Origin: Cyanidioschyzon merolae
Lineage: Eukaryota
Reading direction: 5' to 3' (one strand)
Assembly (NCBI GenBank): GCA_000091205.1
Contig: AP006487.2
DNA length: 64,000 nucleotides
Shown here: positions 10,770-52,615 of the stretch, in pieces
Layout: the number at the start of each line of letters is the position of its first letter
Position numbering within the stretch: position 1 is the stretch's first letter
Position numbers and translations under genes: made by a program
The notes under the pieces: generated by a model
What the model saw: the letters and a program-made list of their open reading frames with translations, nothing else
Databases searched by the model: none
What the model was told of the DNA's origin: nothing

Positions 10770-12974
10770 TCTATGGAGGATCTTTGCGTTGTACGAGTCT
10801 AGACAGGAATGTAGTACAACTCGTGTATCGAATATCGCCATTTCATGCCGGTTGTCGGCTGCTGCAAATGTCCTGTGCAACCTCATCAGCTCGGCATGCC
10901 CCCGGAAGTCGTACATGGCTGGCACGCTTTCGCTCCTCGACAAGGTGATTTTGTTCTTCGGGAAAACGCATCTCAGTGAGAGTGGCTGAACTGGTGTTTT
11001 TGGAGCTCGAAACAGACGCAGCCTGGAAAGGTCTTGCTGCTGGTGGGCTTGGGCTGCCCCGTGTTCAGGCGCCGGCAACAGTTCGTTGCGGTCCAAGCGG
11101 CAGACTCATCAGTTGTGCTTGACTGCCGGACTTTAGCAGCTCTGGCCACTATGGCCGGACTCACAAAGGGTGGATCTGATCAAAGATCATAGTCAAGGCG
11201 AACGCTTTTGCGAGCCAACCTGTTAACAGTTCCAAGGCCTGAACAGAGCGGCGCTCTGCACGGAGTTCGTCTGCAGATGCGGGCATTCGACTCACTGCGC
11301 TTACTTAGGTCTTGTTTAAAACTATTGAACGTGAGGAGAACATGAAATGCGAGACTCGCTTGGCAAGAGAGGATGCAGAAGCGTACTACTGCCCGATACC
11401 ACGCACAGGAGCCATCGAGGAAACGAACATGGTCCTAGCAACCGCTGCAAGCACTTACATTCATATCGGAGTCAAATGAAAACGGCCTGCTTTGCTGACC
11501 TGGGCGTCAAGTTAGAGTCATTTCCAACTGTCACCGAAACCTGGCTATGTGAACGTTTTGGGACGCAGCCCTTTTCATCTCTATTAATTCTGGTTTAAGA
11601 TACGCTAGTCTCCCCCGTCCCTCCCGCTTTGTTATAAGCGGTCGAAATTTGAGGTTGGCAGTATTCAAGTCTCGATTTCGCAGTTTCCCGCTTCTGTCGA
11701 CGCATTGATGCACATGCGAAAGTTGCGATCTACGCATCTCTTGCTAATTGCATCTTCTTTGTATACAGTCTCGCTGCGTTTTCGCAGCCGTGACATTTGA
11801 TTGCGATCAGATGGTCCGATGTGCTACTCACATTTCCTTCATCGAGTGCCGCAGCATGGCGCGAGAAGGCTTCCTTCATCGCTCAGTACATGGCTTTGAC
11901 GAGCGCAGAAGTATTCCCGCGTTGCACTCCTCCGATTCCGCGGCCGGTACGGTATCCTTCGATCACGGTTTCTTCTGAGCTATCCTTTCAGTGATAAACC
12001 TGTCCGCTGCACACGCAAGCGCACGCTGGTCAGTTCGATCGGGGATTTATCTAACGCGTGGCTGTGTATGATGGAACAAGTTCCTACAGAAACATCTCGG
12101 CTGGAGAGCAGCTCGAGAAAATTCGGTCCGTCTTCGCTGCCCTCCTGCGTAGCGGCGACGCACTCTCCGTGGGAATCGATAGCTGCAATGCCTGAAGTCG
12201 GAGTCCAAGATCATTATCCATGGATACAGAGACGACGCGAGCCTCTGCATCCATGTTCTGTTCGAGGGATCATGCTGCCATCGATTAACTCTTCGTCAAT
12301 GGCCGCAAGGAGAGGAAATTTTGCCTCCCGAGAGAAAAAGAGATCATCTGAAGTGACGTTTTCAGTGAACTTCCGACATAGGATTGTGAAGAAGGCCTTT
12401 GGGGCTATTGTCGAGCATGATTCCTCTTCAATCCAGCGGCGCACGCTGCGGCGCCCGGGAGTCGCCTTGGAACAGAAAGATCGAAAACTTGAAGACCGCA
12501 TGATTCGCGCATGCCACAAGTGAGGAAAACAGAATCGTGGATGCTTGAAAGTACAAATCGGGTAACTGTATCGGAAGCTTTACGAGCCATTAGTCGAAGG
12601 TGCTACGAATCACCTTGATTCCTGTGACATACCGAAATCCAGAGGCAGAGCGCCGATGGAGCGCCTCCGAGCCTACGACCAAGAATCCTACGAATACGTA
12701 TGAATCCGTGCCCCCTCATTGCTGGCCGTCGAATGTCGGGGCTATTCACTTACCAAAATTTTGGGAAAACGATCAAAAGGCAGGTGCAGTGCGATTAGTA
12801 TTGTGTTCCACAGTGATATGAAACCGGTTCGGAATGAGGAGCACGTGCTCGCGCAGTCTGGATCCCCGGATCGAAAGACGGCTTGATGCAGGTGATGACG
12901 CCTTTCGCCTCAATCGTGTTCCACAATCAGATGCGTGTAACCACATGGGTTTTCGCGTTGTATGGCAGATGGGT

Positions 12975-13468
12975 TAGAAGTGCGTTCATTTTCGAAAACA
13001 AAAAAAAATCCAAGGGAAAGGTATGGACGTGAAATTCGGAGGTCCTGAACCGCCGTCATCGCCAGGTTCGAAGACGAAACGAAACAATCCTCTTCTCGTC
13101 GACCATGAACCGAACAAGAGCAAGTAGTGACCACGATGAAGACGAGAGGATATAAGCGAGAAAAAAGTTTTGCCCAACGGGACGACGACGAGACTGTAAC
13201 GACACAGAGGGCGCGGGTTCGAGGAATCCTCGCACTTATGAGATCAACCAGAAGCAATAAACACATGGCGTTCGTGAACCGAGACTTCGACGCCGCCATC
13301 AATATTGAACGATGTGTTGCGCTGAGGAAAAGACCCGAGGAGCTCGCGCAATCTATCATTGTGGGACAGCCTTTCAGGCTCGAAGTGTGAAGGAGAAGTT
13401 GAAGCCCATAGCAGTCGGTCGGTCAAAAAAGGCTGGACAGCGTCTGCGCATGGGTATTAATTTACCCT
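12975..13468 (+). mobile_element. TnpB/Fanzor-like tail unit only, copy 3
   Basis: 'MDVKFGGPEPPSSPGSKTKRN…' N-terminal stub, then 'KHMAFVNRDFDAAINIERCVALRKRPEELAQSIIVGQPFRLEV'. Ends 'GGGTATTAATTTACCC' (13452–13467). Confidence 0.6.
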
Positions 13469-13985
13469 GCATGGTCGTCGGACATTTTTTGTTCCGCTGA
13501 TCTTGCGTATGCTCTAAATCGGGTACAGCGCCTAAGCGTGTCGGATCGTGATCCCCTACAGACATCGCGCGCGAAGGTACCCCGAATGCAATTACCGCGT
13601 CATCGATTGGGATTCTCCATTCTGATACGGATTGTTCAGCGAATCAGAACAGCATGGTCGTGAAAAAAAACATACGGGCTCTCGGTGCAGAGCTGCGCAT
13701 GCAAATTTCCCCTGGTCGGAAGTCGCACTCGCATGCGGAATGATACAAGATGCCTGAAAACGGAGTTCTTTGGTGTACCACGCATAGCGGACATCTCGTC
13801 CGAGAGCGTCCATGCATACTTACATTCCATTCTTGTCGTATATCGTGGAGATGATGCAGGCGATACAATTTCCGGCCCTGGAAGACGTTGACAAATTGAC
13901 TTGGAGCTTGCCTGGGAGGGCTTCAAGCAGAGCTTGTCTGTTCCGCGGGCGATAGCAGCCTCGTACGATATTCTTGAGGACCGCT

Positions 13986-14519: not shown

Positions 14520-15868
14520 GTAGTCGAAATCAATATGCGATCCATCCTCTGGATCGAAGGCGAATTGCCTGTAGGATATATGTTTTAATGAAAAGTGCAA
14601 GGATAACTGTATTCCTCCTTCAGGTCAGCGATACCACAGTACCTAGATGGTTGAGGAACACTGAAAGAAACAAGTAGATGCGCTCGACGCTAAAAATCGA
14701 TATTCACAAAGCGTACTTAAAGTCAATTTTAGAACAAGACCCGTTGGTAACCTTATGGGACGCAAACGCGACGATAGCAGCCTCAATGGGCGTCTCTTTT
14801 TCTCAACCGCTTATTCGTGTGCGCCTGATAACACTGAGATTCGCTCGCCAAGAAGAGTCCTAGTTCAACCAAAGCTATCTTCCACTGGAATCGCAACGAC
14901 AGCGTTCCTGGAACGTCGCTATCGGTGGGAAGCGCAGGGACATCGGTTTGGTTCACTCGATGTAACTTTGATCTGACCAGATGTTCGGACCGTATATAGG
15001 TATTCGCCGAGCAGGACTCCCATTGTATGCACGATCGAACACGAAGAGAACGACAACATCATCTGTTCTAGCTGTCTTGGACACATTTGGCGGCCTCAGT
15101 TTCGCTCGTCGCGAAGGCTCATACAACAGCACCTACCACTTTGTCGAATCGTTGAAGGCCTTTTCGTTTGCATCCGAGCTTTTGCCAAGTCTATCGGGGA
15201 GAACTACCGTTCATTCCTGCGTACACTCCGTGGTTCAACCTCACAGAAAGAAGTGATTTCTATCGTGAAAAGTAATGAGCGCTCCACTGGGTGAATCGCT
15301 GAAGTCTTCAGCGCGGTGACACACAGGGACATATTTCATCTCTCATTGGCAAATCCGTGTCGCTCAGAGAAGGTCCTGACCTAAGGGCATCAACAATTGC
15401 GTTCATTTGAAGAAAGAAAAAGTCCAAGGGAAAGGTGTGGACATTGAAGTCGAGGATCCTGGAGCCCGGTCATCGCCAGCTGCCGGGAGAAGAAAAATCT
15501 CTTCGCGCGGACCATCGAGCGAAGAAGATCAAGCGACGAAGAAGAGGAAGGAGATAGGCGAGAAAAGGTTACGCCTGACGGGACGATGACGAGACTGTGG
15601 TGGTACAGAAGGCACGATTTCTAGGATTCCTACGAGTCCTGCATCCCAACAACGACAATGCACACAGTGAGCTCATAGGCCGAGACGTCAACGCCGTCAT
15701 CAATATCAGACGATGTGCGGTGCTGGACATGAGATTCGGCGAGCTGACGCAATCCAACTTTGTGGGGCAGTTTCTCAGGCTCGAAGTGTAAGGAGAAGCT
15801 GAAGCCGATAGAAGAGAGCCGTTCGAAACAGACTGGGAGGCGTCTGCAGGTGGATATTAATTTACGCT
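14520..15868 (+). mobile_element. Composite decayed repeat, copy 4 (Tc1-like HTH/DDE remnant 14520–≈15390; tail unit 15395–15868)
   Basis: 'HPLDRRRIACRIYVLMKSARITVFLLQVSDTTVPRWLRNTERNK' (HTH-like), 'IPAYTPWFNLTERSDFYRE' (DDE C-terminal remnant). Tail 'MKKEKVQGKGVDIEVEDPG…ATKKRKE' plus 'LIGRDVNAVINIRRCAVL…GQFLRLEV'. Ends 'GGATATTAATTTACGC' (15852–15867). Confidence 0.6.
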
Positions 15869-16752
15869 GGACTGCAAGAACCAAATCTAACCGCTTATTA
15901 GCAACTCCATAACAATGCCGTTCGACCTGTATGTTAAGAGTTGAAAGGGGGAAAAAGTTTCCATATTTTCGAAAGTTTGCCCTCCAGGCACATGGCCCCG
16001 CAAGCCCGACGAGTATGCCGGCGAATGCTTCAAGCTCTCCCTGGTGGCAGGTGCTTTAATGAGATCTAACCAGCTAGTCCGATACGCAGTTTATTTTGGG
16101 ACTAGGAGAGGATATGATATGTCTGAGCGGCGGCCTGGCCGCAGTGGACTCCTAGTATATCGCTTTCCGCTGCCGCAGACAGTACGTCTGTCTGCACAGC
16201 TCTCAGACTCCCAGAATGAATACGCACTTCGAGTCCGTGTCAGATGCACCACGCCTCGAGCCGACGCCCTTAACGGTATGGCAATGCTGTTCTGCCTCTA
16301 TGTTGCATCCGCACCCGCGCTATAGCCGCTAAGGCGGGTGCTCATGGCATGCTCGGCGCACGATAGAACAACGAAACGACCAGTACATCCGAGAGTTAGT
16401 ACGGGGAATGGAACTTGAAGGTAAGGTGCATCATGATGGACGCTTTCCCCGAAGCGAATATCCATCCCGCAATCTGGGATCCATTGTCAATCTAAAGGTT
16501 TTGTCAAAAACAATTGCTGCGCGGATCGGCCGTGAACATACACGCGTGCCATAGAGCTTATCTATGGATTATCACAGGAGAAAAGTCGTTTGTTTTGTCC
16601 AGACACTTGCAGGGACCAGAAGAACTTACAGGTCAGGACTAGCAGTATCAGAGCGAACGAGAACAGCGATCAAACACTTTGTGTCGTTTCCACAAAAGTT
16701 TAATCGAGTGGAAAGCAGGTTGCACGAGATTTCAGCTGTTGCAGGTGTCCTT

Positions 16753-20662: not shown

Positions 20663-23600
20663 AACCGCTGCGAGTCGCGAGAGCACCAATGTTGGCCCCT
20701 TCTTTCCATGGAGACCGGCAGGATGCAGTGCTGGTTGCGGGCGCGGTTTGTAGCCAGATGACGTGCTGTTCGGGCAATACAGTCTTTGGAGTTGCAAAAA
20801 GCAGTCCGCTGTACTCTTGCAGGTGACTTTTAATGCTGTATTAAGATGCACGGGAAGTGGACCCATCTTAAATGCCTCATCCCTGCTGCGAAGAACAAAG
20901 AACGGCATCGTGTGCACTCGTTGAGGCGATGCAGCTTCGCAGATTCTAGCGAGAATATGATTGTTCTTGAGACGATCGCGAGCTCCTCATAGAGCCCTTC
21001 AGAGCTCGAGTTTCTCTTGAGACTTGCTGTATTCTAATATATCGCTGTGACGCCTATTGCGAGCTGAGATGTGGAAGCGAGCGAGTATATACTTAATAAT
21101 ATTGACTAATGGAACTCCAATCTTGTTTTTCAATTGCCAAGAATAATCATCCGCAGTGTGTATATACGATGCGTGAATCTTGCTGTGTCGATGAGCATTA
21201 GCGTAAAAATGCCTTGCCCCAGGTGAGTATCCAATACTCTCTCTTCTGCATACTGATGTTTTTACCGGAATTCTTCTGCGTATCAGCACGATGCTCGCTC
21301 TGAGTACGAAACGATTACGTCGAAACCTCGTCCGCCACAAAAGCCGCTGAAACCTCCCGAAGCACGTGCCATTTCCGGTAAACGACCGTGGCGTTAATGC
21401 CGCGGGGCATAAAGAGCTCGCGTGCATTTTTGCTCGAGGAAAGACTCCATCGCGAGCCTACCCGCCTCGATATCCCCGCCATCTGATGCTCGGTCAGCTT
21501 CCCGTACACCATCTCGAGCGCCCGGCTCTGTTTCACGCTTTACTTCTCTACCAGTATCAGCGTGCACCCGTGCTCGCCATGCACGTGTGTCGCCCTGAGC
21601 GCATCGGTAGGACTCGCACAGAATCCATTCCTGTACTCGTTCTACGCGCTCATCGAAGGCGCAGGTGTGCAGTCTTTCCATGCATAGCATGTCCAGCGCT
21701 ATCGGCTTGCGCCCAGCAACTCTACCTATGGTTCATTTCCTTGACCATTTCGATGAAGAGTTTCTCGAAAGCGCGATTATTCCTTCTGTAGACACGAAAA
21801 TGTTGGTGATCCCGACACGGTCTCATGTAAACCTGCGAAAGCTCTTTCGCATGAGCCATATTATGGATGAGTAATATCTGGATGCAGCGCACAAAGCATC
21901 CGCCTCTATTCGAGGCTGCCACCACTGCGTCTATGTGGGTCTTGGCGCCATTCTTGTACTTAATCGCGTCTCCTGGTGACCTTCATACCTGACTCCAGAT
22001 AATATCGAGCCTTGAGGAAGCTTAGCAGGGGCGCTTGTGTTCCTTTTGAGGTCTTTGGTTGCCTCCTCTTGAATTGGAGAAACGGCTATGGCCATGACAC
22101 CCTTCAAACAGGGAACAAAGCTTACCACGAAGTCTTTCTCATCATTTGTCTTGAACGGTTGAGAATGGGGCAACTTGGTCAGTTCCGGCAAAGGTATCTT
22201 GAAGTACATGCAAGCGAATATTCAGGGAGTCTCCATTGTCACAGTAAACTTGCGTACATTTTCCCTGTAGACGAGAAACCTTGAACGAGCTCGGCCAGCG
22301 CTCTTCTCGAAGTCATTTGAATGCTTCTTGCTTACAGAGACCAGCAGCAACTAACTACTCGGGCCATGCAATTTAGTAAATAAGTGTCCACCGTGGTATA
22401 CTGGGTCTTTACGTGACGTGCGTGGACCCCATCCAGTAGGCGCTGTATCTCACTTTTAAGAACAGTCTCCCCGATAATGTGTTCCAGTAGGTAGCCCATG
22501 AAAACGGTCCCAGCATTACCTTTCCGCTCCGCGAGTACCTCATTCCTGTCCTTCGTCGTCCTCTTTTCGGAAGTATCTTTCTCATATTGGTCCGGGAGAT
22601 TCTTCTTCTTCCCTTTTCCTTTGGGTTGCTTCAAGGATTTTGTAACTGTACCCCATATCCGTTTTCATCTCGAGACTAGATCATACTCGGTGGACGCTCG
22701 GACTGCATCTCGCCTGTTCTACACATGTGCATAATATTTCTCATGCACCTGTTCGTCGTGATCTCGGTTAAGAGCACGCGCATGGACCGAAGCACGCTTT
22801 TCCGGTCTCTGTTGCGCGCGGATAGAGAAGCAACACATCAGTCCACGGCTGGCAAACGTTAAGAGCAACCGGTCGACGAAAGATTTGTGGAAAACGTTTG
22901 GTGAAAAGGGTGCAAACGACTCGTCTTTTGATCCGTGAGCGTGAAACTGGCTTTAGACAACGGAGGCGAATCCTTCGCCTGGATGGAGCTGCGTAAGAGA
23001 GGCTGGCACGAAGAGCAGCCCCTTGCGCATCCCACCTGCGCACTTGATGAGCGCTTGAGTGCTGTTGGAGCTTGCGTTGACTGGGAGCAAAAAAGAGGAA
23101 TTTTAAAAGAAAAGCCACGAATTTCTTCGAAGAAGAATTTGGTATAGAACAATGCTGTCTGTTTGGCGAGCAGTAGGCGAACGTATGATTGAATCGCCGC
23201 CATGGCTGCATTCGTCGCAAAGCTCGCTTGTCTTGTTATACCGAACAGCGATTTGCTCTTCTTTGACCATCCATATATTGCCCAACAACTTCTCCAACAC
23301 AAATTCCCATCAACTGAAACGCACAATTGTGCCTCAAGTAACATGCGTTCACGTTTCAGTACGAAATTGATTATACGTGTTGTTCAGTGCGTGACGGTCT
23401 CCCATTGAAGTCTGCCATTTCTCCTCTGTCCGTGGCTCTTCATCACTATTCGTATCAACGGTAAGGAAATTTCGCATCCAGTGGCTCCTTTGATAGCACT
23501 TCTCAGAGAACGTATAGAAAGGAATGGAGTGACGAGGAGACTGCTGCGAACACAGAGTTCAATAATTTCTGTTTTGGGAGCACCATGTTGAGGATTCTTA

Positions 23601-23944
23601 CTGCGAGAAGGGTGGTTCTTCAACCTGCTGACCGAAGAATCACTGAACTGCACATGTGAATCCGTTTCTTTCAAGCTTGCATTGAGTGTATAAAGCCCTT
23701 CCGTAACCGTTCCCCTATCTGCAGGATGTACACCTTATGCCGAATGCCTGAAAAAACAAAAACCAAACGGGTGCGTGTTGGTGCATGTGTTCTAGAATTC
23801 TCTGTTCTGTATCTAACGCCGCACATATACCAAAACGTTCAAGCGGAGACTCAGTGCGGCACGCGGAATGCAGAGAGGCTCTGAAAATGAAGCGCATCTT
23901 CAATTTAACTCCAATCCTGGATTCGAATTTCTGAATGAAATTAC

Positions 23945-29317: not shown

Positions 29318-29799
29318 ATTTGCTAGAAGCGAAAACGTCGCTAAACAAGAAGAAAGCTATCGCAAGTGCGCAGACGATTGAATCGCAAGAAGTAACGACT
29401 CTTGACGATCTTTTCCACCAGCTGAGCTTCTTTTCCTCAAGAAATAGAGCCTAGCTTGCTCAAGGTAGTGGAGGCGTTGTCTAGGGCGCTTTCTGCTTGC
29501 GCCAGACGCACCGCTCAGTTGGGATTATTGCCGCCGCAGGTACACCTCCGTTCCTTTTCCGAGGATATGCAAAATGCCACTACGGTTTGTAGTCGTCCAC
29601 GAACCGGTTGCATGGAAGCGCTAGGCTTTTGCGCAGTACGCACAGAAGACGGTAGTGTTGTCCGCTCTGACTGGCTCAGTCTCAGCGAATCATAGGCATA
29701 TGGCGCGCAGGAGAGAGCATTACCACTTGTAAGTTGCTATAGTCATTCAAATCAATTGTTTTCACCCGAGCTGCGATGTATAGCCGGAGATCGTAATCA

Positions 29800-31211
29800 T
29801 GATGCAGTGTAGAGTACAGACTATAGACGAGCTGCCTGGTGGATCTGTTCTTCACTGAAAAGTGCATGGAGGTCTGCATTCCTCCTTCAGCTCAGTTATG
29901 CAACAGGACTCAGATGGCTGAGGAACTCTGAAACAACCAAGAATACGCGCTCCGCGCCAAAAGCCGATATTCTCGAAGACTGGATGCGGTCAATGGTAGA
30001 AAACCACCCGTTGATCACCTGTTCTGGAAGGAAATAGCGACGATAGTAGCCACCATGGGCGACTCTGTTTCCCACCAGCTTGTTCGTGTGGTGCTGAAAA
30101 CTCTAGGGTACAGTCGCTAAAGAGAGTCCGGGTCCACGCATGGCCATCTTCCACCGGCACCAAAATGGCAGCGTTCCTGGAACTCAGCGATCAGTATGAC
30201 GTCCACGGACGTCGGTTTGTTTTTTCCCAGTCGATGCGGCTTCCTTCGGACGAGGCGGTCGGTGCGTTTATGGGTATCCTCGGAGATGGCGTCTGTGCTA
30301 TGTACGAACGAACTTGTAGAGAACGAGCATGTCATCAACTGTTCGAGCTGCAGTGGATTCTTTTGGCGGCCTCAGTTTCGCTCATAGACAAGACACATAC
30401 AAGAGCAGCAACGAATTCGTCGAATCACTGAAGACGGTTCTCTGACGTCTTCTGACAACCCTCTGTTGGACAACGTGACATTTCACGATTCTTCTTGCGT
30501 TCGAGTCTCTGCAGATTCTGTTGGAATAGAGCCGCTTTTCATTCCTCCGTACGCGCCGTAGTTTAACGCCATCGAAGAAGTCTTTCTTATCGTCGAACGT
30601 GGTGATCGCTCCACTGGGCGAACCGCTGAAGCTTTGAGCATATGCTGACACAGGAGCATACTCCTTCGTTGTTTTTCAAATCCTTCTGCCATCGGGAAGG
30701 TCCTCAACTGAGCTCAAAAAACAAGTGCGTTCATTTTAAAAAATAAATAATCCAAGGAACAGTTATGGACATTGAAGTCGAGGATTCTAGAGGCCTGGTG
30801 TCGCCAGGTTCGAAAAAGAAACGAAAAATCCTCTTCTCGCCGACCATCGAGCGAAGGACAGCATATGCTGAAAAAAAAGAGAAAATGAGGTGAGATAGGC
30901 GAGAAAAAGTGTATACCCGACGGGACGATGACGAGACTGTAGTGGCACAGAGGGCGCGAGTTCGAGGACTCCTTGCACAAATGAGCTCCACCAGCTGCAG
31001 TAAATGCTTGGAGTCCGTGAACCGAGATTATAAGGCTGGCACCACTATCAGACGATGTCTGGTGCTATAGACGAGACCCGCGGAGCTGACGCGAGCCAAA
31101 TTTGTGGCGCAGCCTCGTAGGGTCAAGGTATACAAGTAGACGCTGACGCCGACAGTAGGGAGCGGGTCCAAAATGTCTGGAAAGCGTCTACGAATGGATA
31201 TGTACATATCT
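29800..31211 (+). mobile_element. Composite decayed repeat, copy 5
   Basis: ~97% identical to copy 7 over ~780 bp (29850–30645 vs 58530–59320). 'PVDHLFWKEIATIVATMGDSVSHQLVRVVLKTLGYSR' (HTH_Tnp_Tc3/IS630-like). 'GIEPLFIPPYAP*FNAIEEVF' (DDE C-terminal motif with a stop). Tail unit from 30716 with 'MDIEVEDSRGLVSPGSKKKRK' and a degenerate RuvC-III region. Confidence 0.6.
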
Positions 31212-31447
31212 TGTATTGTAGCGGAGCATTTCCTCTTCCACTGACGATGTATGTGTAAGAACTGTGTTCGCACGTTGCTGTTCATCACAACATCCCGTGC
31301 AAGAGTCGTAGGCCGCAAATGAGGTGATCGCAGTTGTATACAAATTTGTGTAATATCCACAAAAGGTCGCCTGCGCACGCACCCGACTGGGAATTTGAAC
31401 GTCGCGCTTCGTTTCCTGTAATACACCAGGATCGTTTCGAACTTTTC

Positions 31448-34320: not shown

Positions 34321-35070
34321 ACCGGGACCCAAACAGTACCGAAGAAATCCCGTTTGGGTAAGGTGAGAAAGCGCAAGTCGAGATCATCGGTGACCAAGTC
34401 ATAACCCGAAAATGGTTTTATTACGCGCTACCCGAAGCCTTTACATTCAAAAGTTACAAAGCGTCTCATATATTTCTTTCCTTTTCGGTCCTTGAAGCCT
34501 TCCGGGGGAATCATTCCAAACCATCAAGTATTGTTACAAAATTGTTGTCTCTGTTTCATAGCGAGTTTTTCCATACGCGTTTTCCAGTGATTTCGAAGAC
34601 TACTTTGTCTGCGTTATGCACAGACAAACCTGAGCTGGCCTACTCATAGCGAAACTACAGAATGTGCGGAAGAAAGCCGCCGTCCGGTCGCTCTGCAGCG
34701 AGTCGATGCACTAAGTTCGTCTCTTGTGTACATCGGCCCCAGTGCACATCTCTCTGAGTGGTATATCAAGACATGCCACATCGTTTCGCTCTTGTCAACG
34801 AAAATGAGGATGAGTATGCGTGGCAGAGAATGCGAAAGTGTGCAGTGACACAATCGCTGGGCTAAAGCATGCTGGCAATGAACGTGTTGTAAATCTTCTA
34901 TTTCTGCGAAAAATCATCGACGACATGCAAATCGAAGTTCACCGCGTGCATCGACGACACCGTCGTTGAGGCCGACTTCGAGAGTCACGCCGATACCTGC
35001 ATGCAGAGCGGCTCATCCGAGGAGCGCGTTTCCTCACACATGGAGGCGCGTGATAGTGCTCCAACTGCAT

Positions 35071-35964
35071 CTAGTATGCCATCATTGAGGCTGACGGCGA
35101 CGGCGACGGCGACGGCGACAGCGAGGCTGACATATGCACACGTATCACGTCCGCGTCCGCCAGCGCATCTACCACGTTCAGACGCATATGGTGGCTCCCC
35201 GAGTGCATCGACGACATCATCATCGACGGCGACGGCGAGGCCGACATGTGCACACGAAGCAGCTCATCCGCCACAAGTGCATCATCTAGGCTCAGGCGCA
35301 TGTGGTGGCTCCCCGAGTGCATCGACGACATCATCATCGACGGCGACGGCGAGGCCGACATGTGCACACGAAGCAGCTCATCCGCCACAAGTGCATCATC
35401 TAGGCTCAGGCGCATGTGATGGTTCCCCGAGTGCATCGACGACATCATCATCGACGGCGACGGCGAGGCCGACATGTGCACACGAAGCAGCTCATCCGCC
35501 ACAAGTGCATCGTCTAGGCTCAGGCGCATGTGGTGGCTCCCCGAGTGCATCGACGACATCATCATCGACGGCGACGGCGAGGCCGACATGTGCACACGAA
35601 GCAGCTCATCCGCCACAAGTGCATCGTCTAGGCTCAGGCGCATGTGGTGGCTCCCCGAGTGCATCGACGACATCATCATCGACGGCGACGGCGAGGCCGA
35701 CATGTGCACACGAAGCAGATCATCCGCCACAAGTGCATCGTCAAGGCTCAGACGTGAGCCATATAAACCATACGACGAAGAAGTTGTTGTCGTTGTGGTT
35801 GTTGGCGAGGCCGACGGCGACGGTGAAGGCGACGGTGAAGGTACTAAGATCGGATGCAAGACGGTGCGGTCCTGATTTATCCACAACGGCAGAGCAAGCA
35901 CGTTGCAACTGCAGAGAACAGTGCAGATCACGAACACACAGATGATATTCTTTGCAATCGACAT
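35071..35964 (-). CDS. Putative secreted Ser/Met/His-rich tandem-repeat protein
   Basis: Signal-peptide-like start 'MSIAKNIICVFVICTVLCSCNVLA'. It is followed by about 5.5 copies of a 38-aa unit 'HMRLSLDDALVADELLRVHMSASPSPSMMMSSMHSGSH' encoded by the 114-bp tandem array. ORFs are open on the opposite strand too (a low-complexity effect), so the strand call rests on the signal peptide. Confidence 0.4.
   Translation of the reverse strand: MSIAKNIICVFVICTVLCSCNVLALPLWINQDRTVLHPILVPSPSPSPSPSASPTTTTTTTSSSYGLYGSRLSLDDALVADDLLRVHMSASPSPSMMMSSMHSGSHHMRLSLDDALVADELLRVHMSASPSPSMMMSSMHSGSHHMRLSLDDALVADELLRVHMSASPSPSMMMSSMHSGNHHMRLSLDDALVADELLRVHMSASPSPSMMMSSMHSGSHHMRLSLDDALVADELLRVHMSASPSPSMMMSSMHSGSHHMRLNVVDALADADVIRVHMSASLSPSPSPSPSASMMAY
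35128..35760. repeat. 114-bp tandem repeat array (~5.5 units)
   Basis: Units start at 35190, 35304, 35418, 35532 and 35646, near-identical. Preceded by (GACGGC)n at ~35095–35130. Confidence 0.9.
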
Positions 35965-38309: not shown

Positions 38310-38910
38310 AGTCACAATAAAACGGGAGGGGGCCTGTTCGATATCTCGAGCGAACACGCTCAAGTAGGGTTTCCTTCCCACTTGCGCCAAGACCAGTCCT
38401 CACAGGCTCTATCTGTGACTGCCTCTGTTTCCTCTCTCTTATCTCCTGCTGTAAACACGCGAGTCGTTCATGCCCCTCCAGCTCCGTAGTCAGCAGTCGA
38501 AGGGTGTTGATATTCGCGTTAATGTCCGGATCTGGGAGCTTCCCGCCGCTGACGACGCATTTCAAGCGCAGGCGGGAGGGACGATCTTCGCCTCACTTGT
38601 CTTCCGCAGCGTCTTTGCATGCATGCTTGACGCGCCCAGCGCAACGGTGGCAGTTGACTGCGGTCAGGTGCTCCCACATGACCACCATAACGCGTCCAGA
38701 TCAGAGCGCCGCATGTAACTTTTGAACGCTTGCTTCCTGGCTCGATACATGCGATAGACGGGTCCACGTGGGCTCCACTGCATGCCCTCATTCGTTGCGA
38801 TGCTCGGTGTCGTCCCAGAAGATCACGGGCATCTGCTGGGCGATCTCCTGGACGTGTACTCTGTTAGCTGTGCACGCAAGCCCACGCTGCTCCAGTCGAT
38901 ACGGGATTTG
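38310..38910. repeat. 601-bp dispersed/direct repeat, copy A (upstream of Spo11)
   Basis: ~98% identical to 43959–44559 with identical boundaries ('AGTCACAATAAAACGGG…CGATACGGGATTTG'). Not TG…CA-terminated. Confidence 0.9.
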
Positions 38911-40593
38911 AGAAGCGCAACAATGTCCATGAATAATCAAGGGCCAAAAGAGTTATCCAAGGTAAACAACGAGCCGGGAAATTCCGATTCGTCTACGCTA
39001 CCTTTTTCCAATTCGTTGACGCACGCTCCACTGGAACCGTCCGCTGAGGTGAATCCGCCTCGAGTCCAAAACCCGTTCCGATGCAAACACAAGAAGCGGA
39101 AGCCTCTGGGTGTAAATTCAAGGGCTTCATCATACTACCGCGGAGTATGGTTGCGCCTACGGCTGTTAAGAAATGAGAATTTGTCTTTCGAATGGAATAG
39201 ATGAGATAACGTGGGAGCATCGGTAACCTTTGGCATGGGGCGTAGAAGAAGTCGTCAAGGGAACAAGCAGACAATATCCGTCGTCAGCCTAGCAGCGCGA
39301 ATTTCGGCGCTCATGAGTTGCCATGAAGCAGCAAGATCGAAACCTTTGAGACGTTCTATTTGAGAATGCTGTGCGTAATGAACGGGGAAGATCGACGGTC
39401 TGAGATTATCATGTGGAAAATGAAAACGGTTACTGCACGAACCCTTATTCAAGAGCGTCGCAAATCATCTTGACTCCGGTGACGAATCGAACTCTAGTGA
39501 CCACAATCTGAAGGAGTTACGAAGAAAGGACCACCCGAAATCCTCAAACGACTTACGCATCCATTACTTCTCATGACTGCGCTAGGAACATTAAGTCTGG
39601 AAATCGAAGCAGAAGGTCGGAAAATACTTCGAAAGGCATGAATAAGGCGGGCAGCTTGGTACACCATTTTAATCCTAAACTGGTGGTAAGCATTCAAAAT
39701 TGTAAATAGAACTGCACTTTTGAGTGCCATTTCTTGGAAATGGTACTGGAAGGAAGAACTGTTAATACATGAAGCTTCATCACAAGACTGCTTGAACAAC
39801 CTTTGCGGGCCGTTTCCGATGCTGAAAAGACGCGACGGTCCCGCTCTAAAGATAAACCAACGTCATGGATGGCGTGAAGTCGACCTTGAATCTATGGTCT
39901 CTGTGCGCGGTCGAGACGACCGTCTCGTGGCAATGCAGACTAGGTATCTATCCGAATTACATGTTTTCAAAAGAAAGAGCACGGAGCTTTCCATAGAATT
40001 TCCAGAACGCTTTTTTTGAAAAACTACAAAAAACCATTTTCCCAGCACGGGAGCATTTACAAACAGAGTCCGGGCTCGATTACGCTAGCCTGTTGACGCA
40101 CATCTGCACAAGTGAAACGCTGTAGCGTTTTCCATACACTGGTGCGTTATTTTGTAACACAAAGTCTTTTACTCACTGCTGACGCGATCATAAATTCTTG
40201 GAATTATATCACGTAAGGTCTGGCATCTCACAATACCAAAACATATTTAGTCTTGTCGCGCAGCTCCGCAGCATCAAGCTCGAGTCCGCATGGCGCTCTG
40301 GAATAAGTTCTCTTGAACGTTTGCTTGCTCTTGAAGTCAGTGCAACTCTTAGGCTGAAGCGCGTTCCAAGAGGGAATTTATGGTGGCTGCATACATGCAC
40401 GTAAAGGATCCTGATTCATGGCTCGATCAAGGGCATCATTATGCCCAGCGGGCATCACTGGCGCCACTGGCGGGAGCGACACGCTGATGCGTGTAGGTTG
40501 ATTTCGGAGCACGCATATGGCAGTCCATACGTGCGAGCGGCGCGCTGAGCTGCTCTTAATCTTCTCGCGTGTTGCTGGTATCGACGAAGACAC

Positions 40594-43958: not shown

Positions 43959-44559
43959 AGTCACAATAAAACGGGAGGGGGCCTGTTCGATATCTCGAGC
44001 GAACACGCTCAAGTAGGGTTTCCTTCCCACTTGCGCCAAGACCAGTCCTCACAGGCTCTATCTGTGACTGCCTCCGTTTCCTCTCTCTTATCTCCTGCTG
44101 TAAACACGCGAGTCGTTCATGCCCCTCCAGCTCCGTAGTCAGCAGTCGAAGGGTGTTGATATTCGCGTTAATGTCCGGATCTGGGAGCTTCCCGCCGCTG
44201 ACGACGCATTTCAAGCGCAGGCGGGAGTGACGATCTTCGCCTCACTTGTCTTCCGCAGCGTCTTTGCACGCATGCTTGACGCGCCCAGCGCAACGGTGGC
44301 AGTTGACTGCGGTCAGGTGCTCCCACATGGCCACCATAACGCGTCCAGATCAGAGCGCCGTATGTAACTCTTGAACGCTTGCTTCCTGGCTCGATACATG
44401 CGATAGACGGGTCCACTTGGGCTCCACTGCATGCCCTCATCCGTTGCGATGCTCGGTGTCGTCCCAGAAGATCACGGGCATCTGCTGGGCGATCTCCTGG
44501 ACGTGTGCTCTGTTAGCTGTGCACGCAAGCCCACGCTGCTCCAGTCGATACGGGATTTG
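43959..44559. repeat. 601-bp dispersed/direct repeat, copy B (downstream of Misato)
   Basis: Direct-orientation partner of 38310–38910. The two flank 5,048 bp containing Spo11 and Misato. Confidence 0.9.
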
Positions 44560-45399
44560 TGCAATGCGATGTTTTATATGACGAGACACAGAACGATGGG
44601 GGAATTCATGCTGAAGAACAAGTCGAGAAGCTTCAAACGGTTGACGTTCCGCTCTTGCGAAACGGTGAGGCAATCTTCGTTGGAGACAATCGCTGCGATT
44701 GCTAAAGTCCGGGCCCATGACCCTTCTCTAAGAAAATAGAAGAGACATGAGCACCTGGGCGCATGTCCCGTGAGAAGTATCAGGCTGCTGTCGAACGGCG
44801 TTTTGCCGATGACGATAAACAGATGGCGATTCGTCTTTCGAATGGAATCAATCATTTGGTTTCATACGTTCAGTGAACTTTCGGCTTGAGCTTGTGAAAA
44901 AGTCGTAAAGGGACTACATCGAGGATTCTTTTCGATTCAATCCACCTGCGATAATTGCTGCGCCAGTGAGTCGTTTTGAAACAAAAAAATGGAACTATGA
45001 AGAATGCGAGGTTTGAGCTTGTGAACCGTAAAGAAGGGAGCGGAGTGGAGGATTGTTTGTATAAACCTGATGACGAGATCTGCAATTTTATCAGTGCATG
45101 TTCGATTGCGTTGCAAATCAATTTTATTCCGGGGACCTAACGCTTTCCTACGGCAAAGCGTCGAAGCAGCTACTCCGCAGAGAAAACCGGGAATCCTTAA
45201 CCTAGGTTTGGATCCGTGAGCCGTTGTTGTCGCACTTCCAATGTGGAGTTTTTCGATCTAAAAAAATTCGGGAGAGAATTGTAGAGCAGGAATCGGTAAG
45301 CAGTACAGTTTTCCATTCTACGATTCTTTGAACTCAATTTTGTTTCAACCCCGCTGAGTGTAATAGGATTCTATTTCATCGTAAAGAGCAGGATATCGA

Positions 45400-46800
45400 A
45401 ATTAATATGCAATGTACCCTTTAGACATCAGTCGAATTGCCTGCCGAATATATTCTTTACTGTACAGTGCAAAGAAGACTGCATTCCTCCTTGAGGTGAG
45501 CCATAGAACATTACTCACATGGTTGAGGAACTCTGAAAGAAAAAAGTACATGAGGTCCGTATCAAAACCTAATATTCTCGAAGACTGCTTGCCGGCATTT
45601 GTATAAAACGACCCGTCTATCACCTGACGGAAAGCAGAAGCGGCGATAGCAGCTTCCAAGGCTGTCTCTGCCTCTCTATTGTTTGCTGTTCTGGTCCTGA
45701 AAACACTGGGACACAGTCGCAAAAAGAGAGTCCTAGTTCACGCATGGCCATATCCCGCTGAAATCGCAACGACAATGAACCTGACACTTCTCGATCCGCA
45801 TAAAGCACAGGAGTGTCGGATTGTTTTTTGATTCGGTCCGCCTCTTTTGGACGAAATAGTCGGAGCGTGAATGTGTATTCGCGGAGCAGGAGCACGTTGC
45901 ACGTAAGATCGAGCTCGAAGAGAACGACGACATCATCTGTTCTAGGTTTAGTGGATACACTTGGCGACCTCAGTGTCGCTCGTAGACGAGGCTCATACAA
46001 CAGCTCCAACCAACTTGTCGAATGATTGAAGACTTTTCCCTGACAGCTGGCGACTTTGTTCTGTTTCGTCACGTGCCATTTGCAAATTCTTTTTGCGTTC
46101 GAGTTTTTGGGGATTTTGTTGAAGAAGTGCTGCTTTTCATTCCCTCGTTCGCCCCGAGGTTGAGCCCAATCGAAGGCGTGTTTTCTATCGTGAAACGTAA
46201 TGATCGCCCCACAGGACAAATCGCTGAAGCGTTCGGCACACAGTGACACATCGGGGCACATATCGTCTTTCTTCTGCAAGTGCTTCGCACTCCGAGAAGG
46301 CCCTCACTTGGGGTCATAAACAAGTGCATTAATATTGAAGTAATGCATAATCCAAGCGAGAGCTATGGACATAGAGGTCAAGGATCGTCGAGGCCTGATG
46401 TCGCCAGACTCGACAAATGAAACGAAAAAATCCTTGTCTCGCGAACCAATCAGTGAAGAAGAGCAAGTGACGAAGAAGAAGAGGAGGAAAGGTTGTCAAG
46501 TAATGTCGTCTGTCTGAGTGCGAGATCACGGGACTGCAGTAGCACAGCGAGCACCAGTTCGAGGACTACTCTCATTGGTAAGGTCCAGCTGTGGCAATAA
46601 ATACATGGAGTTCTTGAGCCGAGACTTTAACGCCGCCATCAATATCAGACGGCGTGCGGTGCTCAAGAAGAGACTCGAGGAGCGGACACAATCCGACTTT
46701 GGGGGACAACCTCTGATTCTAGATGTGTACAGGGAGAAGCTGGAACCGATATCGAGCGCCCTGCCGAAATTGGCTGAGAGGCTTCTGTGAGTCTTTATCA
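45400..46800 (+). mobile_element. Composite decayed repeat, copy 6
   Basis: 'MYPLDISRIACRIYSLLYSAKKTAFLLEVSHRTLLTWLRNSERKK' (HTH-like). 'FVEEVLLFIPSFAPRLSPIEGVFSIVKRNDRPTG' (DDE_3 C-terminus). Tail 'MDIEVKDRRGLMSPDSTNETKK…KKKRRK' plus 'NKYMEFLSRDFNAAINIRRRAVLKKRLEE…GGQPLILDV'. Confidence 0.6.
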
Positions 46801-47246
46801 ATACACCCTCGATAGTTGTAGGTCATTTTTCGTTTCTTTGCCTGTGTGTATGATGTGCATGTGTATCGTGAGCCGACGCCCTCCGTCGCACGGCAAAACC
46901 GTTCTGTCTCCGTGCGACGACCGCACCGGCGCTACAGGCGCTATCGCGGACGCTACCGGCAGGCATTCAGCAGATAATGGAACCTACGGAACGACAAGTA
47001 TACCCGGGAAGAAGTATCAGTTATGGAATTTGAAGGTAGGTGCAGAACGATAGGTGCTTCGCCGCGCGCTGATAGCGAGCGCACAGTCGCGGAAAGCCGG
47101 CCTGCGTCAACAATTTGTCAAGTACGAAAATCCCTGCCGCAGACGCTGCGGCGCGCGCACAGTGTAGGTATTCCGTCCCGCGCCGCTAACTCTAGTTAGT
47201 TCATGCTGTGCGTTGGACGAACCCGGACCAAGTATACAATAGAGTA

Positions 47247-48614: not shown

Positions 48615-49094
48615 ATTCGTGGCGAATGCCCCAATTTTTTACATTTCCGTCAGTCTACATCCATATCAGACCAAAATGGAACACGTCGCCACACCCTAGC
48701 GCCCAAAGGGAGTCTGGATCCCTTCCGACTTGCATGACACCGGGCCTTTGCAGGATTTTCCTGCGAGTGCTTCTTTCTCCTCAATCTAATCTCCAGATTT
48801 CAATGCGCTGGACTCCCGTTGTCCTAAAGCTTCATAGTCTGTAGTGGGGGAGGGGGGCGCTGATGGCAGCGTTTAAGTCCCGAGCTCGCGGCTTTTTCGC
48901 TGTTGTTCAAGCATTTCTTCAACGGACGCAAGTCATGATCCACATATCGCATCTTCATTTTCATCTTATTTGAATAAAGTCCTGGTGCGCCATTCGCTGC
49001 GAAACACTTGCACATGGCTAGGTGTACTCGTAAGTGTCCGCCACTGCTAATCATCTCCCGTGCGCCGGCCTGAGGAGCGAGACAACCCTGCTCC

Positions 49095-49640
49095 ATCGCT
49101 TGGTACAAGCCCCTGACCGGCGCAGAGGGCTTTCCTGAATGCATCCTGCAGTTTCCGTCCTTGGCGCTTTACACTGAAACTACGGGCGTCTTCTGGGCAA
49201 AACCCTCTGTGAGAATGCTGCTCGGTGCAAGCGCAAGCGCACGCTGTTCGATGCGACAGAGAATTTCCGGAACATGGTGCTGTTCATGATGGGACAATCA
49301 CCAGAAGCACAATCCGCGCCGGAAAACGAGTCGAAAAACCTCGATCAGTCTCTGCCGCCATTCTCAAAAGCAGTGGCGCGCTTCCGACTGGAGGCGTTTG
49401 CTGAGATGACAAGAGTCCGAGTACGAGACCTTTTTCCATACGGGCCGAAGAGATGGAAGCCTCTAGCAGTAGATCCCGTAAGGGATATTTTGCTGGTGCG
49501 GAATCCCGTTCCGCCCGCAGCCATCCATAGATGAGAAATAATGCTTCGAGCGGAATCGATCATCTGATCGGAAAGGATCAGTGAACTTTCCGCAAGAGTC
49601 TGTAAACAAGTCGTCAAAGGATGATGCTGAGTTTTTCTCG
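49095..49640. repeat. ~540-bp segmental duplicate (partner 60207–60740)
   Basis: ~97% identity. Carries an 86-aa ORF in both copies; all 5 differences are non-synonymous. Confidence 0.85.
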
Positions 49641-52207
49641 CATGAATCCACTGGAGCGCATTGCTTGGCCCAAGAGTCAACTTGAAATAGGAAGATCGAA
49701 ACCTTTGCGAATGCGTGATTTGAGGATACTGCACATCAGAAAAGGAGAATCATGGAGCATGTATATATGAACTGGATAATGATATCGGTTGCTTTATCAC
49801 ACTTGTTCGAGAGCGTCGCGAATCATCTTTATTCCAGTGACGCTACGAATTCCTGGTGCACAAGGCCGATGGAGCCACTCTGAAAACACAACCAAGAATC
49901 CTGAAACTGTGCATGAATGCATAAGCACCTATTACTGAACTTGAATTATCAAAACTGTACATCTATAAAAAACATCCGATGGTCGGAATAGGATCAGCGG
50001 TTAGATGTTCCGTTTCGTTCCAACATTTGTGTAGATAGCGAATAGCGGCCTTCATTTAACGATGCAGACATTCTAGGGCTAGCAGCTGGACGAGACAACC
50101 TTCGCATTATCTTTGCTCTGAACGGCGGGCACCCAAAGAGCAAATCACCAAGCTCTAACTGGACGACTGTCCCCTCTTCAGTATACTCCACCCCACATGG
50201 TCTTTTAAAAATACTACCAAAGAGTCGACAAGGTCTGAAGATTACGTATCGTTGAAACGAACGATGCTGGAGAGAGGCGAATGCAAAAAATATTCGCTAG
50301 TATGGGGGACCATCGCGTTTCGAACACCAAAATATCGATCTTTTTTTGGAGCGCGAAAGCTTCTCACTGGGGGAACCGGTTTCCATCAAACTCGATGAGA
50401 TTTTATTCGGGAAAAGTGGCAAAATTGCAAATGGCTCCTAAAGGGCGGGCAAACCGCTGGTCGTACATAGGAGACGAACGAGTATGCCGAGATCATGAGC
50501 CCTAGTAGCATATCAGCCAAATGATCGCCCACGAATCGTCAGATGAACATGATCCCTTAGCACTTTATATTTCGAAGATGCGCACTTCATGGCTTTTCCA
50601 TCCCAGACTTTACTGTCCTGCCTTTGACCATCTCCTTCTTCATGACGCAAAAGTGGTCAACAAGCACGCAGCTGAGACTTGTATCGAACCGCTCTTCATG
50701 CCACCCTAGTCTTCTTCGCACAACGCAGTCGAATGCGTATTTCCTGTTATGCAAACATATCATTCGCCCACGGATTCATAATCGCATCGTTCGCATCCTG
50801 GAAATCGTTCATCGACATATATTTCTTCGACAAGTCGTCCTTTACCTTCACTAGCGCAATACCGCTCTGTTGCTTCTCTGATCTTAAGCTGGAGGGAACT
50901 GGGTGGCGCGTCGGTCTACGGGGTGCTTGCCACGAGGTGGGTGATGAAAGAAAGCACTGAAGGAACAACCAGTCCAGACATCGAAAACGCCGCTTTTGAG
51001 TCCCAGCGTACACCAAGCCCTCCCAGGTTCCGATGGTAAAGAGCGATATCGTGCGTAACGACCACATGGATGCTACACCGTCCAGAAAAATGAAAAAATG
51101 ACCGTTTGAAGAAGAGAAAGATCCTCCCGTAAAGAGGACATGGATACAAAGGGTACATGCCGGGGCGGAAAGATTCGTATGCTACGATTATCCAGGTTTC
51201 CCTCTCATGGCATATCACCGGTTAGAATCTCCCAACAAGTAAGATTCAGCACTCCACTAGAGATTGTTCAGCCTCTTACTCGAGGTAGAATTGTCAAGCT
51301 TTCTTCGCCATGACGTACCTCATCGAGCAAAACTTCACTGGAGTTCCGGAAGTACGGCTGCCTGCTGTCCACGTTCCTCTGGAATCTTTCGATCAAGCCT
51401 TTGTACGGCACCATAAATGATGCTCGAAAGAAAATATGGAAGACAGTCAGATCGATGGATCAGTGATTTGTGGACGCGCTTCCCTGAATACTCCGACCCG
51501 TTGTCATGCCGCCTCTGAGAATGGAACATCTACAGCGCAGAAGCCAAGAAGCACCTCAAGAACAACATCATAACCATCGCCGGTTAATATCGGGCACTTT
51601 ATGAAGCGCACCTTTTGGACGTTTTACGCGCAGTAGCCTCACATTTACTAGCATGTGCACCTGGAAACTGATTGAATCGATACTCGGGTTTTCGATGGAT
51701 GCAAATGAGGAGCCGGTGGCGGTATCGCTCGAGTTGGTAGCGACTTCGGCAGAGATGTCGCTACGAGGGCGAGCGGCACTCCAGATGGTCCAAGCTCATC
51801 GTGATATGCTGGACCTCGAACCGGACGGGCGCCATATCCAAAGGATGGTTGAAACGAGATGCCTGCCTCCGTTGCATCTTTTGCTACTGTATGTTCCTGA
51901 ATAGAGCTCTCCAGAGCAGATCAAAGTCGCCGTTTGCTTGCGTTATTGCCTTCTTAAGCAACTGTACGATTTGGTTGCCAAAAGTCAGATTCAGGCCCAG
52001 TGTATCACTGTAGACTCTTCTGCGTCGTATTGTGTATGGCCTTATGAGGGAGCCGCGATCGTTCTCTGTATGAAAGTTTACAGCATTTGAGCAAGTCTCA
52101 TAGAAACTTAGTGGAGCTTGTTCAAGGATCCACTTTAACAGGAAGGATGTGGAAAGAAGTTCTCAGGAAAGATTCAGAACGACGGAATATCAATATGAAC
52201 GCACTTT

Positions 52208-52615
52208 TTGAAACCCAGGTGCGGATTAAGCTGCGCAACACATTTGCAATCGTTCAAGATATATGAAGAGAAATACTTCGTGGTGAGCGTGGATCAAGGA
52301 TTGACGGGCATCATTGCTATCGCAATGCCTCTCTGTAATGTTGACGGAGCGAAGGATTTGATCAGAATGCAGATTACTTTGCTCAGCTTTTCAGAGGCTC
52401 GATGTAATCTGGAGTCGGTTATGATTCAGGCCAAGAGGCTTACCAACATACGGACTGACAGGGTATCGACCGTCTTCCACACTCTGAGAACCGTATTGGG
52501 CTGTGAAAGAGCTGTGCATGTTTTATTTAGTGAACGCAAAAGCATCCATATGACCGATGCAGACGAACTTTGCAGTCGTGCACGTGAAAGGGCCTTGTTT
52601 GCGAAAGGATTCTAG
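52208..52615 (+). CDS. Hypothetical small protein, possibly roadblock/longin-like fold (135 aa)
   Basis: 'YFVVSVDQGLTGIIAIAMP…' loosely resembles roadblock/LAMTOR-type small regulators. Weak; ORF evidence only. Confidence 0.2.
   Translation: MKPRCGLSCATHLQSFKIYEEKYFVVSVDQGLTGIIAIAMPLCNVDGAKDLIRMQITLLSFSEARCNLESVMIQAKRLTNIRTDRVSTVFHTLRTVLGCERAVHVLFSERKSIHMTDADELCSRARERALFAKGF

Follow-up and report, generated by a model that had tools for sequence, protein, structure and literature searches.

The 64,000-nucleotide stretch of Cyanidioschyzon merolae 10D chromosome 5 analysed here (contig AP006487.2; hereafter the window) carries seven copies, A to G, of a repeat of about 1.45 kb, identified by self-BLAST and alignment, in which the remains of a DNA transposase of the IS630/Tc1/mariner type are joined to the remains of a Fanzor protein. 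Of seven long open reading frames tested from the window, six match annotated proteins of strain 10D exactly, among them the products of CME065C, CME072C and CME076C. In six of the seven (A, B, D, E, F and G) the DDE part is followed by the Fanzor tail on the same strand; copy C consists of a tail only, with no DDE part. This bears out an earlier note, made from the letters of the DNA alone, which had described a helix-turn-helix (HTH)-DDE remnant and a Fanzor-like tail in fixed order and orientation in its copies 1, 2, 4, 5, 6 and 7, equivalent to our A, B, D, E, F and G. The peptides it quoted are present on direct reading, namely PVDHLFWKEIATIVATMGDSVSHQLVRVVLKTLGYSR at 30008-30118 and FIPPYAP*FNAIEE at 30535-30576 in copy E, FVVVDETFF in copy A and FIPSFAPRLSPIEGVF in copy F. 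The note placed an element at 29800-31211, and one does lie there, but the limits of copy E are wider, about 29738-31257 from multi-copy alignments and consensus BLAST, with ends uncertain by roughly 10-30 bp. The tail is related to CMe-1A, a published C. merolae Fanzor1 family with a 3169-bp consensus, a 734-amino-acid (aa) Fanzor and about 150 copies, the first 635 bp of which are a separate repeat, TE-N2_CMe (PMC3627910).

Copies A-G are about 70% identical to one another along the whole unit, with the same divergence over both halves, and their flanks are unrelated. Homology runs unbroken across the transposase/Fanzor junction in all six composite copies, and the junction falls at an identical position within each of the two classes of internal deletion (I and II) described below. 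No long open frame survives in any of the seven, and every tail carries stops or frameshifts: the window copies are dead. Two older, divergent copies, R8 and R9, were missing from the earlier note's count of seven because they are detectable only at the protein level. With them included, a transposase lies upstream of a Fanzor on the same strand in eight of the nine window copies. The Fanzor downstream in R8 is without most of its N-terminal half, whereas R9 is an essentially full-length decayed element, which matches positions 18-261 of the 300-position transposase profile at 50030-50757 and positions 27-601 of the 615-position Fanzor profile at 51166-53088. The latter matches are colinear over three frames and preserve a trace of nearly the whole Fanzor protein. 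Coordinates are collected in the table below, where TIR stands for terminal inverted repeat.

Positions of the transposase-Fanzor copies in the window and of the parts of copy E
Feature	Position	Strand	Content and basis
Copy A	149-1627	-	transposase remnant and class I Fanzor remnant
Copy B	7111-8516	-	transposase remnant and class II Fanzor remnant (from CMe-1A nt 2742; region right after RuvC-II kept)
Copy C	12910-13510	+	Fanzor-only-type 5' end (CMe-1A nt 800-897), class I internal deletion, no transposase part
Copy D	14524-15875	+	transposase remnant and class I Fanzor remnant; 3' end truncated, abutted by inverted TE-N2_CMe
Copy E	29738-31257	+	whole element: left end, transposase pseudogene, Fanzor remnants, right end
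Copy E, left terminal sequence (TA)TAGTCATTCAAATCAATTGTTTTCACCC	29738-29767	+	inter-copy conservation begins here; homologous to left TIR of intact relatives
Copy E, transposase pseudogene	29813-30639	+	IS630/Tc1/mariner-type, frameshifted, with stops; tblastn with consensus and P0286
Copy E, transposase landmarks	~30008-30118; ~30466; 30535-30576	+	putative HTH; second Asp (LDNVTFH); PPYAP.FN.IE
Copy E, Fanzor leader and N-terminal remnant	30723-30944	+	ATG 30765; CMe-1A Fanzor aa ~1-55 (tblastn); BLAST to CMe-1A nt 869-969
Copy E, Fanzor C-terminal remnant	30933-31196	+	aa ~640-728; tblastn E=1e-18; BLAST to CMe-1A nt 2840-3082
Copy E, right terminal sequence GCATTTCCTCTTCCACTGACGATGTATGTGTA	31222-31257	+	3'-end alignment; resembles relatives' right TIR, weakly complementary to left end
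Copy F	45326-46840	+	transposase remnant and class I Fanzor remnant
Copy G	58394-59840	+	transposase remnant (E-like over 785 bp) and class II Fanzor remnant
R8, older divergent copy	21354-23734	-	transposase nearly complete (profile 5-285 of 300); Fanzor profile 7-57 and 297-585
R9, older divergent copy, ~3.2 kb	~49985-53130	+	essentially full-length decayed element; tblastn, hmmsearch of translated frames

One pair of copies departs from the uniform divergence: within the transposase part, a 785-bp stretch of E and G (29857-30640 versus 58532-59316) shows 98.2% identity, which looks like a recent gene conversion between copies 28.7 kb apart. Outside that tract the two are only about 70% identical, and their Fanzor remnants fall in different deletion classes. 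Metagenome contigs of close strains stop inside copy E.

The DDE part is a genuine remnant of an IS630/Tc1/mariner-type transposase. A majority consensus of the copies matches Pfam DDE_3 (PF13358) with E=1.6e-9, above the curated cut-off, and shows sub-threshold matches to the HTH families HTH_Tnp_Tc3_2 (E=0.074) and HTH_33 (E=0.22). When the consensus was stitched and corrected for frameshifts, the resulting 268-aa sequence retrieved intact DDE_3 transposases of about 300 aa with E-values of 1e-50 to 1e-53 and 39-41% identity over 100% of the query. This end-to-end alignment means that the transposase part is a nearly full-length pseudogene and not a small fragment. Its N-terminal ~130 aa are colinear with the intact homologues, one of which (P0289) has a precomputed HTH_23 assignment. 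The catalytic residues D133, D211 (the Asp of DNxxFH) and E246 (the Glu of NPIE) are invariant in the alignment with those homologues, and 34 residues separate the second D from the E, giving the spacing known as DD34E. Profile match, spacing and full-length alignment thus agree with the earlier assignment to a Tc1/mariner(IS630)-like DDE_3 transposase. PUl-1, a Fanzor-carrying element of Pythium, has a 'Mariner' transposase that is also distantly similar to it (E 1e-12 to 1e-23).

The tail, taken in that note to be Fanzor-like, is indeed derived from a Fanzor. The tail consensus retrieved nothing but short open reading frames (ORFs), the longer of which show VDEFRTSYT upstream of NRDFNAAINI. 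Two contigs, L001 and L002, carry frameshifted genes of about 2.3 kb with GADPGNTNI, DEFRTS and NRDFNAAINI in that order, and the published CMe-1A consensus, taken from the supplement, matches them at 83-88%. The window tails are about 70-78% identical to CMe-1A over nt 869-969 and 2738/2840-3084, with E-values of 1e-19 to 1e-38 at the DNA level and down to 1e-28 against the CMe-1A Fanzor at the protein level. A family profile built from the CMe-1A Fanzor and 27 intact relatives (28 sequences) was run with hmmsearch against the PDB; its two best matches were the Fanzors SpuFz1 (8GKH, E=8.4e-9) and Guillardia GtFz1 (9CER, E=4.1e-5). Only this 28-sequence profile gave matches, and PDB searches with a single stitched Fanzor or with a 6-sequence profile gave none. 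By hhalign, the family aligns with the Pythium PUl-1 Fanzor1 at a probability of 96.9% (E=1.4e-10), with GxDPG and DEFRTS in register. Pfam PF07282 matched the tails, the stitched proteins and the near-full-length Fanzors over its last 11 positions only (RDxNAAxNI), below the cut-off; many homologues bear the precomputed family label PF26935.

The split RuvC motifs I (GxDPG), II (DE[FY]RTS) and III (NRDxNAAxNI) occur in order in the CMe-1A Fanzor and its 27 relatives, and the 28-protein alignment keeps the catalytic triad, with no exception at D431 and E603 and near-invariance at D672. All the short window copies retain motif III, which in copy E has decayed to NRDYKAGTTI, and B and G alone keep the region just past motif II. 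The C4 zinc ribbon that canonical Fanzor1/TnpB proteins have between RuvC-II and RuvC-III was looked for in the segment corresponding to CMe-1A aa 601-680: no CxxC or Cx2-4C pair occurs there in any of the 28 family proteins, which contain 0-3 cysteines each, while the same clade retains the D-E-D triad. Judged by these sequences, the whole Fanzor1 clade linked to this transposase lacks the zinc ribbon.

Intact relatives of the element show how the two halves belong together. On the contigs of two of the intact transposases, the transposase is followed on the same strand by an ORF of 702 or 627 aa, 42% and 32.5% identical, respectively, to the CMe-1A Fanzor over the full length. Scanning metagenomes with the transposase alignment yielded 80 loci. 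Where enough downstream sequence was available, a Fanzor homologue covering most of the query usually lay about 30-400 bp 3' of the transposase on the same strand; we tabulated 31 such loci, each with an uninterrupted Fanzor ORF of 586-788 aa. Relatives with clear ends are 2.9-3.4 kb long, encode a transposase of about 300 aa followed by Fanzor1, and are bounded by TA-flanked TIRs of 28-30 bp such as TACACTCAGACAAGTGAATAATGTTACAC, with TA at both ends in L014, L025, L047 and L050-L052. The same element type occupies three or more different TA sites (L047/L052, L050, L051). The complete TIR-transposase-Fanzor-TIR organisation that the earlier note anticipated therefore exists in these intact metagenomic relatives.

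Two of these loci have features of their own. At L014 3401-3454 the right TIR directly abuts the left TIR of a second element, head to tail with one shared TA (…GGAGTG TA CATTCTG…), and the right TIR is present once more, further in, at 3351-3380. The intact transposase-Fanzor element of L060 (1-10813; contig JACCDW010235443.1, 51.9 kb) has a D5_N primase-like ORF on one side and a PhyH ORF on the other; the contig's GC content of 31-39% and its dense coding suggest a giant-virus genome.

These relatives bear directly on the possibility that two unrelated elements came to lie side by side by chance or by preferential nesting, for example at scarce intergenic 'safe' sites. C. merolae does have a gene-dense genome, and other repeats do pile up beside the copies, among them TE-N2_CMe and a repeat of about 300 bp upstream of C, F and R9. 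Nested insertions should, on the other hand, leave separate termini between the two parts, and none were found: the TA-flanked TIRs of the intact relatives enclose both ORFs, and their 53-75-bp intergenic spacers hold no TIR-like sequence, such sequences occurring only outside the gene pair. In the window, moreover, all copies of a deletion class have the junction at the same position, and homology carries on across it in independent copies whose flanks are unrelated. Nesting is thus effectively refuted, in line with the earlier note's view of the copies as one family.

The short copies are deletion derivatives, as had been suggested, with at least two deletion classes in the window, further breakpoints in hot-spring contigs and a near-full-length element in R9. 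In class I (A, C, D, E and F), Fanzor aa ~57 is joined in frame to aa ~645. In class II (B and G), the leader is joined to CMe-1A nt ~2738 (aa ~612), and the segment HELGCTLQRVE just after RuvC-II is retained. Contigs of Cyanidioschyzon-like hot-spring origin add breakpoints at Fanzor aa 343, 535, 557, 565, 574, 612 and 651. In some metagenomic copies (P0003, P0006, P0013) the class I deletion leaves an open 'mini-Fanzor' ORF of 140-180 aa, in which the N-terminal ~57 aa, including a KKRK-like stretch, run straight into the last ~90 aa; every such frame in the window (30765-31196 in copy E) is broken. A candidate full-length composite among the Cyanidioschyzon-like contigs, L069, was rejected because it consists of a short class II copy with a distinct CMe-1A copy after it.

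A second, complementary kind of derivative has kept the Fanzor and lost the transposase. CMe-1A, L001, L002 and copy C are Fanzor-only, and since they share with the transposase-bearing copies the same left end (TATAGTTTTTCAGTTCAATTGTGTTTCAACC, CMe-1A nt ~785) and the leader that follows it, we read CMe-1A as a precise deletion of the transposase ORF. The statement in the earlier note that the tail is 'always linked' to the transposase remnant is therefore not strictly true: it holds for six of the seven short copies and for R8 and R9, but not for copy C or for CMe-1A. The regions that the window copies have in common with the CMe-1A consensus are confined to nt ~785-1065 and 2738/2840-3136, at about 70-78% identity; CMe-1A has no transposase part, and the window copies lack its 5' TE-N2 part. 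With identity of about 70% and an overlap that is only partial, the window copies constitute a sister family or subfamily and not CMe-1A itself.

Taken together, homology of both halves to known proteins, constant order and strand, multiple deletion classes and the full TIR/TA architecture of the intact relatives make it very probable that the ~1.45-kb copies, dead and non-autonomous, derive by internal deletion from an IS630/Tc1/mariner transposon that carried a gene for Fanzor1, a TnpB-like RuvC nuclease, directly after its transposase gene and within a single TIR pair. The progenitor would have been an element of about 3 kb with the layout TA-TIR-transposase-Fanzor1-3' untranslated region (UTR)-TIR-TA, moving by cut and paste at TA sites, and R9 would be a decayed example of it. 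It may have given rise to derivatives without the Fanzor interior (classes I and II) by internal deletions of the kind typical of gap-repair errors and, separately, to the Fanzor-only CMe-1A by exact loss of the transposase ORF with the left end kept. The deleted copies would then have been mobilised whole, presumably by a transposase acting in trans, with neutral decay afterwards bringing them to about 70% identity between pairs; the order of the deletion events is likewise a reconstruction, and a past role of the Fanzor as an RNA-guided nuclease aiding retention of the transposon is conceivable.

A different history would make the composite secondary: a transposase-only element and CMe-1A, originally separate but sharing or exchanging ends, could have been fused by ectopic recombination or template switching and the product then amplified. 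Copy C, which joins a CMe-1A-type 5' end to the class I deletion otherwise found in transposase-bearing copies, would fit such exchanges, and the 785-bp tract of E and G shows that sequence does pass between copies. Yet the 31 intact relatives have this gene pair as their standard state, with order and strand unchanged, inside one TIR pair; R8 and R9 show that order in an older and different lineage; and CMe-1A has the look of a composite leader from which exactly the transposase ORF was removed. We consider this chimeric origin very unlikely.

Several observations weigh against descent from a single TIR-bounded transposon. The first group concerns the lineage itself: database matches included no intact transposase from the C. 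merolae lineage, no copy with both an intact transposase and a full Fanzor was found in that lineage, and the best full-length database matches come from other hosts and are only 36-41% identical. The second concerns the ends. Complementarity between the left and the right end is only weak in the C. merolae copies, inverted- and direct-repeat searches in each window copy, R8 and R9 returned no credible TIR, TA duplications are unreadable at the inferred decayed ends, and the right terminus is uncertain by about 30 bp. The third concerns TE-N2_CMe. The CMe-1A consensus runs 784 bp upstream of the proposed left end (TE-N2_CMe plus 150 bp), and inverted TE-N2_CMe copies abut the 3' ends of D and F at junctions that recur in other contigs; a simple TIR-to-TIR model explains neither the 5' extension nor these junctions. 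One possibility is that TE-N2_CMe acts as a terminal module, alternative or long; another is that it inserts with a strong preference. Its copies in the window lie right after D and F, at 15876-16506 (-) and 46870-47059 (-), and the corresponding junctions elsewhere are at L035 6377-7010, L019 8699-9332, L070 3157-3354 and L073 6291-6488.

Aligning the copies to locate the true termini, as the earlier note proposed, gave ends that resemble the TIRs of the relatives but pair poorly with each other and show no readable TA duplications. Inter-copy conservation starts at about (CACTTG)TAGTCTTTCAACTCAATTTTGTTTCACC, which resembles left TIRs of relatives such as L059 (ACTCCGACCAATCAATTTTGTTACAG) and, more generally, those of L059, L062 and L014 (...CAATCAATTTTGTTACA...). 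It stops at about GAAACATTTTTCGTTCCACTGA..TTGYGTAT, which resembles the right TIRs of L014, L025 and L047 (AACATTTTT...GAGTGTA). The poorly paired ends and the lack of a TIR in direct searches agree with the description of CMe-1A by Bao & Jurka ('no TIRs, TSD not available', where TSD is the target-site duplication), who left its classification as unknown (PMC3627910). A search of the window with a 15-mer left-end motif gave chance-level matches, and no empty sites were found among syntenic metagenome contigs of C. merolae-like strains, which break at the repeat or carry copies.

That every deletion class spares the last 280-450 bp raises the question of whether the retained tail is functional, i.e., whether at least ~280 bp of the Fanzor 3' end encode a guide (omega) RNA, a mini-protein needed in cis, or both. 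The class I deletion is in frame, and the open 140-180-aa mini-ORF of some metagenomic copies would suit a protein product. As for an RNA, 3' UTRs from intact relatives are more stable when folded than their shuffled versions (mononucleotide z -2.2 to -5.7), and a stem with an ATACAC motif after it is common to them. In L014, L025, L047, L059 and L062 a long stem and then (C/T)ATACAC lie about 60-95 nt upstream of the right TIR, and CMe-1A has the same motif after a 13-bp stem (nt ~3040-3137); stem and motif are a candidate guide-RNA scaffold. In the C. merolae-type tails, by contrast, RNAalifold on 11 sequences gave a weak structure (-3.7 kcal/mol) with one compensatory pair, Rfam returned no match, and all window tails have stops or frameshifts. 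Retention of both ends is, in any case, what is expected of any cut-and-paste deletion derivative, and we hold a functional tail to be unlikely.

A bolder conjecture, to which we likewise give little credence, is that the two complementary deletion series, CMe-1A on the one side and the transposase-bearing copies on the other, are what remains of a trans-complementing system that needed both the transposase and the zinc-ribbon-less Fanzor1. The tail would then be a guide-RNA/right-end module through which non-autonomous copies could be serviced by the Fanzor, and the pairing in the 31 intact elements, including the one on the giant-virus-like contig, would reflect an obligate partnership and not a passive 'capture'.

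Fanzor1 genes in Mariner/Tc1 elements have been known since 2013, so the transposon origin we favour involves no new principle. Elements with a transposase and a Fanzor1 were described as PUl-1 and PUl-2 in Pythium ultimum and as ROr-1/2, MCi-1 and PGv-1 (Bao & Jurka 2013, PMC3627910). The elements considered here resemble these in their TA target, their short TIRs (24-33 bp in PUl-1/2, 28-30 bp in the intact relatives), the order of transposase and then Fanzor1, and a length of about 3-4 kb. Both PUl-1 proteins are detectably homologous to ours, but at only 23-31% identity; PUl-1 and SpuFz1 have a C4 zinc ribbon and the Fanzor clade here does not, and the C. merolae copies differ further in being all decayed and internally deleted. 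CMe-1A shares with the window copies its genome, its left end (nt ~785-815) and leader, and tails about 70-78% identical over nt 869-1065 and 2738/2840-3136; it has a full Fanzor ORF, no transposase and a 784-bp 5' extension, whereas the window copies have a transposase and Fanzor stubs. Some CMe-1A copies are reported to keep intact ORFs, and transcription of the C. merolae repeats has also been reported. SpuFz1 (Spizellomyces punctatus; 8GKH) and GtFz1 (9CER) have been shown experimentally to be RNA-guided nucleases. Their RuvC I/II/III motifs align with the family profile, the sequences being distant, and the CxxC...CxxxxC zinc-binding residues that SpuFz1 has between RuvC-II and RuvC-III are absent from the family. 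SPu-1 elements have no transposase (PMC3627910). With bacterial IS630 and eukaryotic Tc1 (DD34E) elements the family shares DDE_3, the spacing, a putative N-terminal HTH region and, in intact relatives, TA-flanked TIRs; it differs from them in its Fanzor passenger gene and its short transposase of ~300 aa.

Both components of the repeat were noted in C. merolae in 2007, separately, as a Fanzor repeat and as eight 'bacterial-type transposase' remnants (PMC1955436); the '253-copy WSV486-like interspersed repeat' of Nozaki et al. 2007 is the CMe-1A repeat (PMC1955436). In the literature searched we found no statement linking CMe-1A to an IS630/Tc1/mariner transposase, and the link is the probable explanation of at least some of the eight 'bacterial-like transposase' matches of the 2007 genome paper. 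The added value is modest: the connection to a DD34E transposase classifies an abundant and so far unclassified repeat and provides a plausible mechanism for its mobilisation, in a very small genome of which the Fanzor-related repeat makes up about 5%, and it associates this transposase with a Fanzor1 clade that has no zinc ribbon. The 31 intact two-gene elements, which keep the RuvC triad and do without the zinc ribbon, are also a resource that may interest work on the minimal requirements of Fanzor nucleases or on the link between Fanzor and DDE transposases.

The window contains further repeats. An old interspersed repeat of about 260-370 bp, 66-68% identical between copies, lies at 12430-12689, 39324-39549, 44837-45203 and 49545-49908; it is found 100-220 bp upstream of C, F and R9 and once on its own, and matches neither CMe-1A nor any fetched locus. 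One tandem array, at 35110-35754 inside the ORF 35001-35945, has a period of about 114 bp, and another, at 61975-62294, has one of about 82 bp. Two dispersed duplications are unrelated to the transposase-Fanzor family: one of 601 bp (38310-38910 versus 43959-44559, 98.5% identical) and one of 684 bp (48946-49626 versus 60062-60740, 91.7%), the latter adjoining R9 and copy G.

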